A stretch of DNA of 64,000 bases from assembly GCF_003334815.1 (NCBI RefSeq), contig NZ_QOWO01000008.1. One strand, given 5' to 3'. This DNA is from Escherichia coli (GTDB lineage: Bacteria > Pseudomonadota > Gammaproteobacteria > Enterobacterales > Enterobacteriaceae). Below, piece after piece: positions 49,955 to 49,980 of the stretch (the first letter of the stretch is position 1; each line of letters starts with the position of its first letter). The notes under the pieces were generated by a model. The model did not search any database. It saw nothing but the letters and a program-made list of their open reading frames with translations, and was not told where the DNA came from. Made by a program: the position numbers and the translations under genes.

Positions 49955-49980
49955 GCCGGCATGATGCCGGCTTTTTTTTA
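49955..49980 (+). terminator. Orphan intrinsic-terminator-like hairpin
   Basis: gccggcatgatgccggc followed by TTTTTTTT on the plus strand, with no annotated plus-strand gene upstream. Confidence 0.4.

Follow-up and report, generated by a model that had tools for sequence, protein, structure and literature searches.

The window analysed here, a stretch of 64,000 nucleotides of Escherichia coli DNA, carries the gene order yedA-vsr-dcm-yedJ-drpB-[rseX]-porin-hchA, which is the same as in K-12. The plus-strand gene yedA (45779..46699) is followed by vsr, dcm, yedJ and drpB (yedR), all of which lie on the minus strand between yedA and the hairpin described below, as an earlier note on this DNA had said of yedR and yedJ. 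On the other side, an intact yedS-type porin gene occupies 50291..51478 (+). Its open reading frame encodes 395 aa, and PGAP calls the gene ‘porin OmpC’ in the closest genome. The yedS-type porin gene is a pseudogene in K-12, and frameshifts or truncations affect it in an O157:H7 strain and strain 139.

In the intergenic DNA between drpB and the porin gene, positions 49953..49979 read GGGCCGGCA-TGA-TGCCGGCTT, followed by further T, and the wider segment 49943..49984 reads TATATTTTTT GGGCCGGCA TGA TGCCGGCTT TTTTTT ATGCC. Both a terminator scan and folding place a plus-strand hairpin here, with the stem at 49953-49961/49965-49973 and the loop TGA at 49962-49964. The scan counted nine pairs, of which six are G-C, around a loop of 3 nt, and found a T tail behind the stem. 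The two basal pairs of the stem are G-U, and the perfect Watson-Crick core comprises 7 bp (49955-49961/49965-49971). A run of eight T at 49972..49979 (+) forms the terminator’s U-tail, with which the small RNA RseX ends (see below). The 41-nt hairpin segment folds with -14.6 kcal/mol, compared to -8.7 ± 2.5 kcal/mol for dinucleotide shuffles (z = -2.35). The feature is a Rho-independent (intrinsic) terminator, a G+C-rich stem-loop directly before a U run on the plus strand. The earlier note had read a GC-rich hairpin with eight T at 49955..49980 in just this way, and its coordinates were accurate: the core stem begins at 49955 and the T run extends through 49979.

A strict definition of a terminator (at least seven perfect pairs, at least five G-C and at least seven T among the next eight bases) was satisfied by two sites on the minus strand of the 64 kb window and by one on the plus strand, the hairpin described here; 30 first-order Markov simulations of the window produced none. 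As the sole strict site on its strand in 64 kb, and with 0 of 30 simulations yielding a counterpart, the hairpin lies far beyond chance. The only two other terminator-like sites of comparable strength in the window lie on the minus strand, at 41471..41491, reading CCCGACCC..GGGTCGGG then T7, and at 19761..19777, reading CCCCGCC..GGCGGGG then T6. A bidirectional terminator between drpB and the porin gene was considered and rejected. The T-runs lie on the plus strand only, so that on the minus strand the hairpin is flanked by A-runs and termination is not possible, and no minus-strand gene ends at this place.

The rseX gene at the hairpin

We compared the region 48500..51500 with all Rfam families and obtained one match above threshold. 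RF01401 (rseX, an Hfq-binding RNA; gathering score 50 bits) matched 49889..49978 (+) along its entire model (positions 1-94 of 94) with 96.7 bits and E = 2.3e-13, and the 49953..49973 hairpin corresponds exactly to the final helix of the model. In the annotation of K-12 MG1655, the ncRNA rseX (b4603; 2033649..2033739, +) is located between drpB (b1963) and the pseudogene yedS. Alignment of the window with K-12 (99% column identity) projected the two ends of this gene onto 49889 and onto 49979, the last T of the run. The Rfam match and the mapped b4603 thus define rseX at 49889..49979 (+), starting 66 bases upstream of the core stem of the hairpin. Genomic position and orientation are those of the K-12 gene, between drpB/yedR and yedS, as seen from the K-12 annotation, the closest RefSeq genome and the alignment. 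By Rfam, K-12 annotation and alignment alike, the terminator stands at the 3’ end of the plus-strand rseX transcription unit. These data establish the identity and the boundaries of the element, and we are almost certain that the hairpin and its T-run are the terminator of rseX, the gene for a 91-nt Hfq-dependent sRNA. The element is hence an already known feature that is re-identified here in a non-K-12 E. coli strain.

The earlier note had placed the nearest upstream plus-strand gene more than 3 kb away and had suggested that the hairpin might end an unannotated short plus-strand transcript. The distance holds for protein-coding genes, with yedA lying ~3.3 kb upstream, and does not hold for genes of any kind, as rseX starts at 49889. 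In the same way, the hairpin does terminate a short plus-strand transcript, one that is neither orphan nor unannotated: it is the known RseX (RF01401, b4603). The orphan appearance arises from PGAP annotation, which leaves rseX without a feature in RefSeq genomes. Over the locus homologous to 49840..50030, the PGAP feature was ‘none’ in all of the 40 sampled E. coli RefSeq records, and the annotation of the closest RefSeq genome lists drpB and a porin only at this locus. The curated K-12 MG1655 record is the only one listing rseX.

RseX of this strain resembles K-12 RseX (b4603, RF01401) in locus, strand and length (91 nt), and the two are identical at 89 of 91 nt, with the terminator and the whole of the last 40 nt (nt 52-91, 49940..49979) unchanged. 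One substitution is found at nt 9 in the 5’ end (49897; T here and A in K-12, hence U and A in the RNA) and one at nt 26 in the loop of the weak first hairpin (49914; C here and T in K-12, hence C and U). The promoter region differs from K-12 at -13 (49876; A here, T in K-12), and the adjoining porin gene is intact here and the pseudogene yedS in K-12. Kinship with RyhB was considered and rejected: the sub-threshold Rfam match at 49921..49979 (+; 23 bits versus a threshold of 55, E = 0.34) comes from the terminator hairpin and U-tail only and is a chance resemblance between terminators.

Architecture and conservation of RseX

The 5’ part of RseX contains a weak hairpin at 49902..49926 (+), which is the first helix of the Rfam structure line and also appears in the minimum-free-energy fold. 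The single-stranded core CCGTTATTAGCCTTTTATCGTCTTGTTTATA (49916..49946, +) is identical to K-12 and invariant in 11 alleles. The part of RseX that is predicted to pair with ompA and ompC, as described in PMC8313858 (citing Guillier 2006 and Douchin 2006), is placed in this core. The core is followed by a U-rich stretch, TTTTTT, at 49947..49952 (+), directly 5’ of the terminator hairpin; other alleles have 5-8 T at this position. The combination of a U-rich stretch, a terminator hairpin and a 3’ poly-U is the Hfq-binding 3’ end of enterobacterial sRNAs. RseX shows the layout of this module, with the U-rich stretch 5’ of the hairpin and a U8 tail where at least 6-7 3’ U are expected, and 49947..49979 is therefore the predicted Hfq-binding end of RseX.

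As a whole, the 93-nt RNA did not fold better than shuffles (z = -1.19). Such a value would be expected for an sRNA whose body is U-rich and probably largely unstructured, as the folding suggests for RseX. RNAalifold analysis of the 11 alleles identified the terminator helix as the sole consensus structure for RseX and did not support the weak 5’ helix as a consensus structure.

The 191-bp rseX region is single-copy and is present in 4880 of the 5426 complete E. coli genomes, and the remaining 546 (about 10%) gave no match. These absences agree with a published listing of rseX among the sRNAs that are variably present within E. coli/Shigella, under a heading that credits mainly secondary loss (PMC3318445). 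The alleles that diverge most, with identities as low as 89%, were also retrieved. In all of them the terminator stem, a run of 7-8 T and the core block at 49916..49946 are kept, with stem and block being invariant. Variation was limited to RseX nt 6-10, to the flanks and to the first hairpin, which differs between strains in its loop and at one stem position (GATGCCTCC / GATAACCCC / CATCATG). The six G-C pairs of the terminator are invariant in 11 alleles, including those of E. whittamii and of another Escherichia species. As the stem never varies, covariation is uninformative and speaks neither for nor against the helix.

Divergent alleles and the rseX loci of other Escherichia scored 89-97 bits with RF01401. 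In E. whittamii and the other Escherichia species, rseX is full-length (93-94 bits) and ends in the same terminator. We searched one genome per species for a 25-nt segment of the 49916..49946 core, and among these 100,044 species representatives it was found only in Escherichia, namely in E. coli, E. whittamii and another Escherichia species. These data establish the conservation of the element and its uniqueness.

Transcription of rseX and the neighboring porin gene

The presumed sigma-70 promoter of rseX was located by sequence at 49854..49882 (+). It comprises a weak -35 element TTAATC (49854-49859), a 17-bp spacer and a good -10 element TACAAT (49877-49882), the end of which is 6 bp away from the +1 annotated at 49889. 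It matches the consensus at 8 of 12 positions, which is below the cut-off of the promoter scan, and it is absent from the list of sites that the scan produced. The -10 element is TACAAT or TAAAAT in most alleles and TTCAAT in two (L004/L005, strains 135 and ES5). In the TTCAAT alleles the conserved A at hexamer position 2 is lost, and the presumed promoter may be inactive there with RNA and terminator being kept. In K-12, the 5’ end of RseX was mapped by 5’ RACE as that of a primary transcript from a sigma-70 promoter, according to PMC8313858 (citing Chen 2002 and Douchin 2006). RseX expression is silenced by H-NS and the RNA is undetectable in wild-type K-12 under laboratory conditions, and hns mutants (∆hns K-12) show an RseX band of ~91 nt together with a species of ~75 nt (PMC8313858). 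The ~91-nt band, seen in ∆hns K-12 as well as on overexpression, fits termination at the site described here (PMC8313858, PMC11979758); our literature search found no 3’-end mapping, by term-seq or otherwise, that mentions RseX. At a G+C content of ~30%, as opposed to ~54% for the genes on either side, the intergenic DNA around rseX has a composition consistent with binding of H-NS.

The best match of the promoter scan in this region is a near-consensus sigma-70-like site on the minus strand, ATGACA-16-TATAAT (11 of 12 positions), at 49908..49881 (-). This site covers RseX +1..+20, and its -10 element overlaps the presumed -10 element of rseX by 2 bp. Neither of its hexamers varies among the 11 alleles, which may simply reflect constraint on RseX. 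We considered the site as the drpB promoter and rejected this, because the published drpB promoter is located between the old GTG-1 and ATG-22 codons, at ~49662..49724. According to PMC7648144, promoter and transcription start lie near drpB, downstream of the GTG once annotated as its start and upstream of the true ATG. In the window, the formerly annotated yedR GTG is at ~49724 and the true drpB ATG at 49661, and a weaker promoter-like site, TGGAAA-16-CATAAT at 49723..49696 (-), corresponds to the published position. We speculated that the 49908..49881 site and PrseX might be back-to-back promoters that cannot be occupied at the same time, in which case polymerase at the stronger minus-strand promoter would help to silence RseX besides H-NS. 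We regard this arrangement as unlikely. If true, shut-off of the minus-strand promoter would represent the missing natural inducing signal for RseX.

The hairpin lies on the strand of the porin gene, 312 nt upstream of the porin start codon at 50291. It might therefore be an attenuator in the leader of the porin gene, a reading in which the rseX promoter gives rise to a long mRNA and the hairpin gates entry into the porin gene. Read-through control is known for other sRNA terminators (PMC8313858, discussion). We consider an attenuator very improbable at this locus, as the terminator is strong, with six G-C pairs and eight U, and no alternative anti-terminator structure was predicted. The porin gene has its own promoter-like sites past the hairpin, identified by the promoter scan at 50104..50131 and 50170..50197 (+). 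Moreover, RseX expressed on its own as a 91-nt RNA is active in trans (PMC8313858, PMC11979758), and the rseX terminator is invariant even where the porin gene is a pseudogene, as in K-12 and O157:H7. The porin’s own sites also bear on the proposal of the earlier note that the hairpin might insulate the porin promoter. This idea gained no specific support, and any terminator limits read-through into downstream DNA. Pairing of RseX with the leader of the neighboring porin gene was not better than expected from shuffled RNA: the best duplex reached -22.6 kcal/mol, the mean for shuffled RseX was -23.1 kcal/mol, and 52% of the shuffles were as good.

We give next to no credence to a chance palindrome or a REP-like repeated element without a transcript of its own. 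The hairpin is intergenic and a near-perfect palindrome, and the reverse strand fits the same pattern with one mismatch. Against chance, no hairpin of such strength appeared in 30 simulated sequences of 64 kb. Against a REP-like element, which should be present in many copies, the hairpin occurs once in the window and at a median of one place per E. coli genome. We looked for many copies of the hairpin with its flanks elsewhere in E. coli genomes and found none. Both readings are further opposed by the position of the hairpin, which coincides exactly with the 3’ end of an sRNA that Rfam matches in full length, and by the restriction of the T-runs to one strand, the minus strand being unable to terminate there. 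Finally, that the hairpin is part of the coding sequence of a small protein (49907..50035, +; 42 aa) is suggested by an ATG-initiated 42-codon ORF that spans it and is uninterrupted both here and in K-12, and can practically be dismissed: the frame is not kept (one strain, in which the T-run length differs by 1 nt, has a stop codon within the hairpin), the first ATG is lost in several strains (CATCATG) and stop positions differ, translation would have to pass through an intrinsic terminator, and no Shine-Dalgarno sequence is evident upstream of 49907.

Function of RseX

As described in PMC8313858, a sigma-70 promoter and a Rho-independent terminator first led to the prediction of RseX, which was then recovered as a suppressor of RseP essentiality when present in multicopy; it represses ompA and ompC via Hfq. 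It also acts directly on fimB and ihfB (PMC8313858). In K-12, the 3’ part of the RNA has an activity of its own: RseX+52, consisting of the last 40 nt alone, represses fepA 23-fold, and mutations of the exposed nucleotides in the terminator loop abolish this repression without lowering RNA levels (PMC11979758). Hfq and RNase E are both needed for the effect, and no direct base pairing to the fepA mRNA was detected (PMC11979758). Since the 40-nt fragment of RseX+52 is identical to 49940..49979, the K-12 result on fepA carries over to the window as directly as a cross-strain result can. Judged by sequence identity, the expression pattern, Hfq dependence, targets and loop role described in K-12 should also apply to this strain, with particular strength for the 3’ 40 nt.

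With the hairpin as the terminator of rseX, we propose the following mode of action. Polymerase would start at ~49889 from a weak sigma-70 promoter that is normally silenced by H-NS/StpA, transcribe a short, mostly unstructured U-rich body and terminate at the G-C hairpin with its U-tail. Once the RNA is complete, the hairpin, the 3’ U-tail and the preceding U-rich stretch would form the Hfq-binding end, and the single-stranded body would pair with the translation initiation regions of ompA, ompC, fimB and ihfB, leading to their repression. The exposed loop of the same terminator, which is also required for fepA repression in K-12, would act apparently without direct pairing.

Like RseX, the sRNAs MicF, MicC, MicA and RybB are short primary transcripts that end in a G-C hairpin with a U-tail and work with Hfq. 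All of them, RseX included, repress mRNAs of outer-membrane proteins by pairing near the ribosome-binding site. There is no sequence relationship between these four RNAs and RseX, rseX alone having passed the Rfam threshold, and RseX differs from them in being controlled by H-NS silencing and not by sigma-E or OmpR (PMC8313858). A further likeness exists to SdsR and ArrS. The 3’ terminator region of K-12 RseX alone represses fepA and requires the exposed loop nucleotides, as do theirs, and fepA control by SdsR and ArrS depends on the far 5’UTR; in contrast to SdsR and ArrS, RseX behaved differently with a compensatory stem mutant of fepA (PMC11979758).

Scans that rest on protein-coding context will keep flagging the rseX hairpin as an orphan in PGAP-annotated E. 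coli genomes. The terminator is the very feature behind the sRNA prediction of 2002, and RseX was characterized in 2006. The current interest of the hairpin lies in a 2024 study in which its loop takes part in the repression of fepA, the gene of the iron-enterobactin receptor, a published finding that concerns a 40-nt sequence identical to the one described here.
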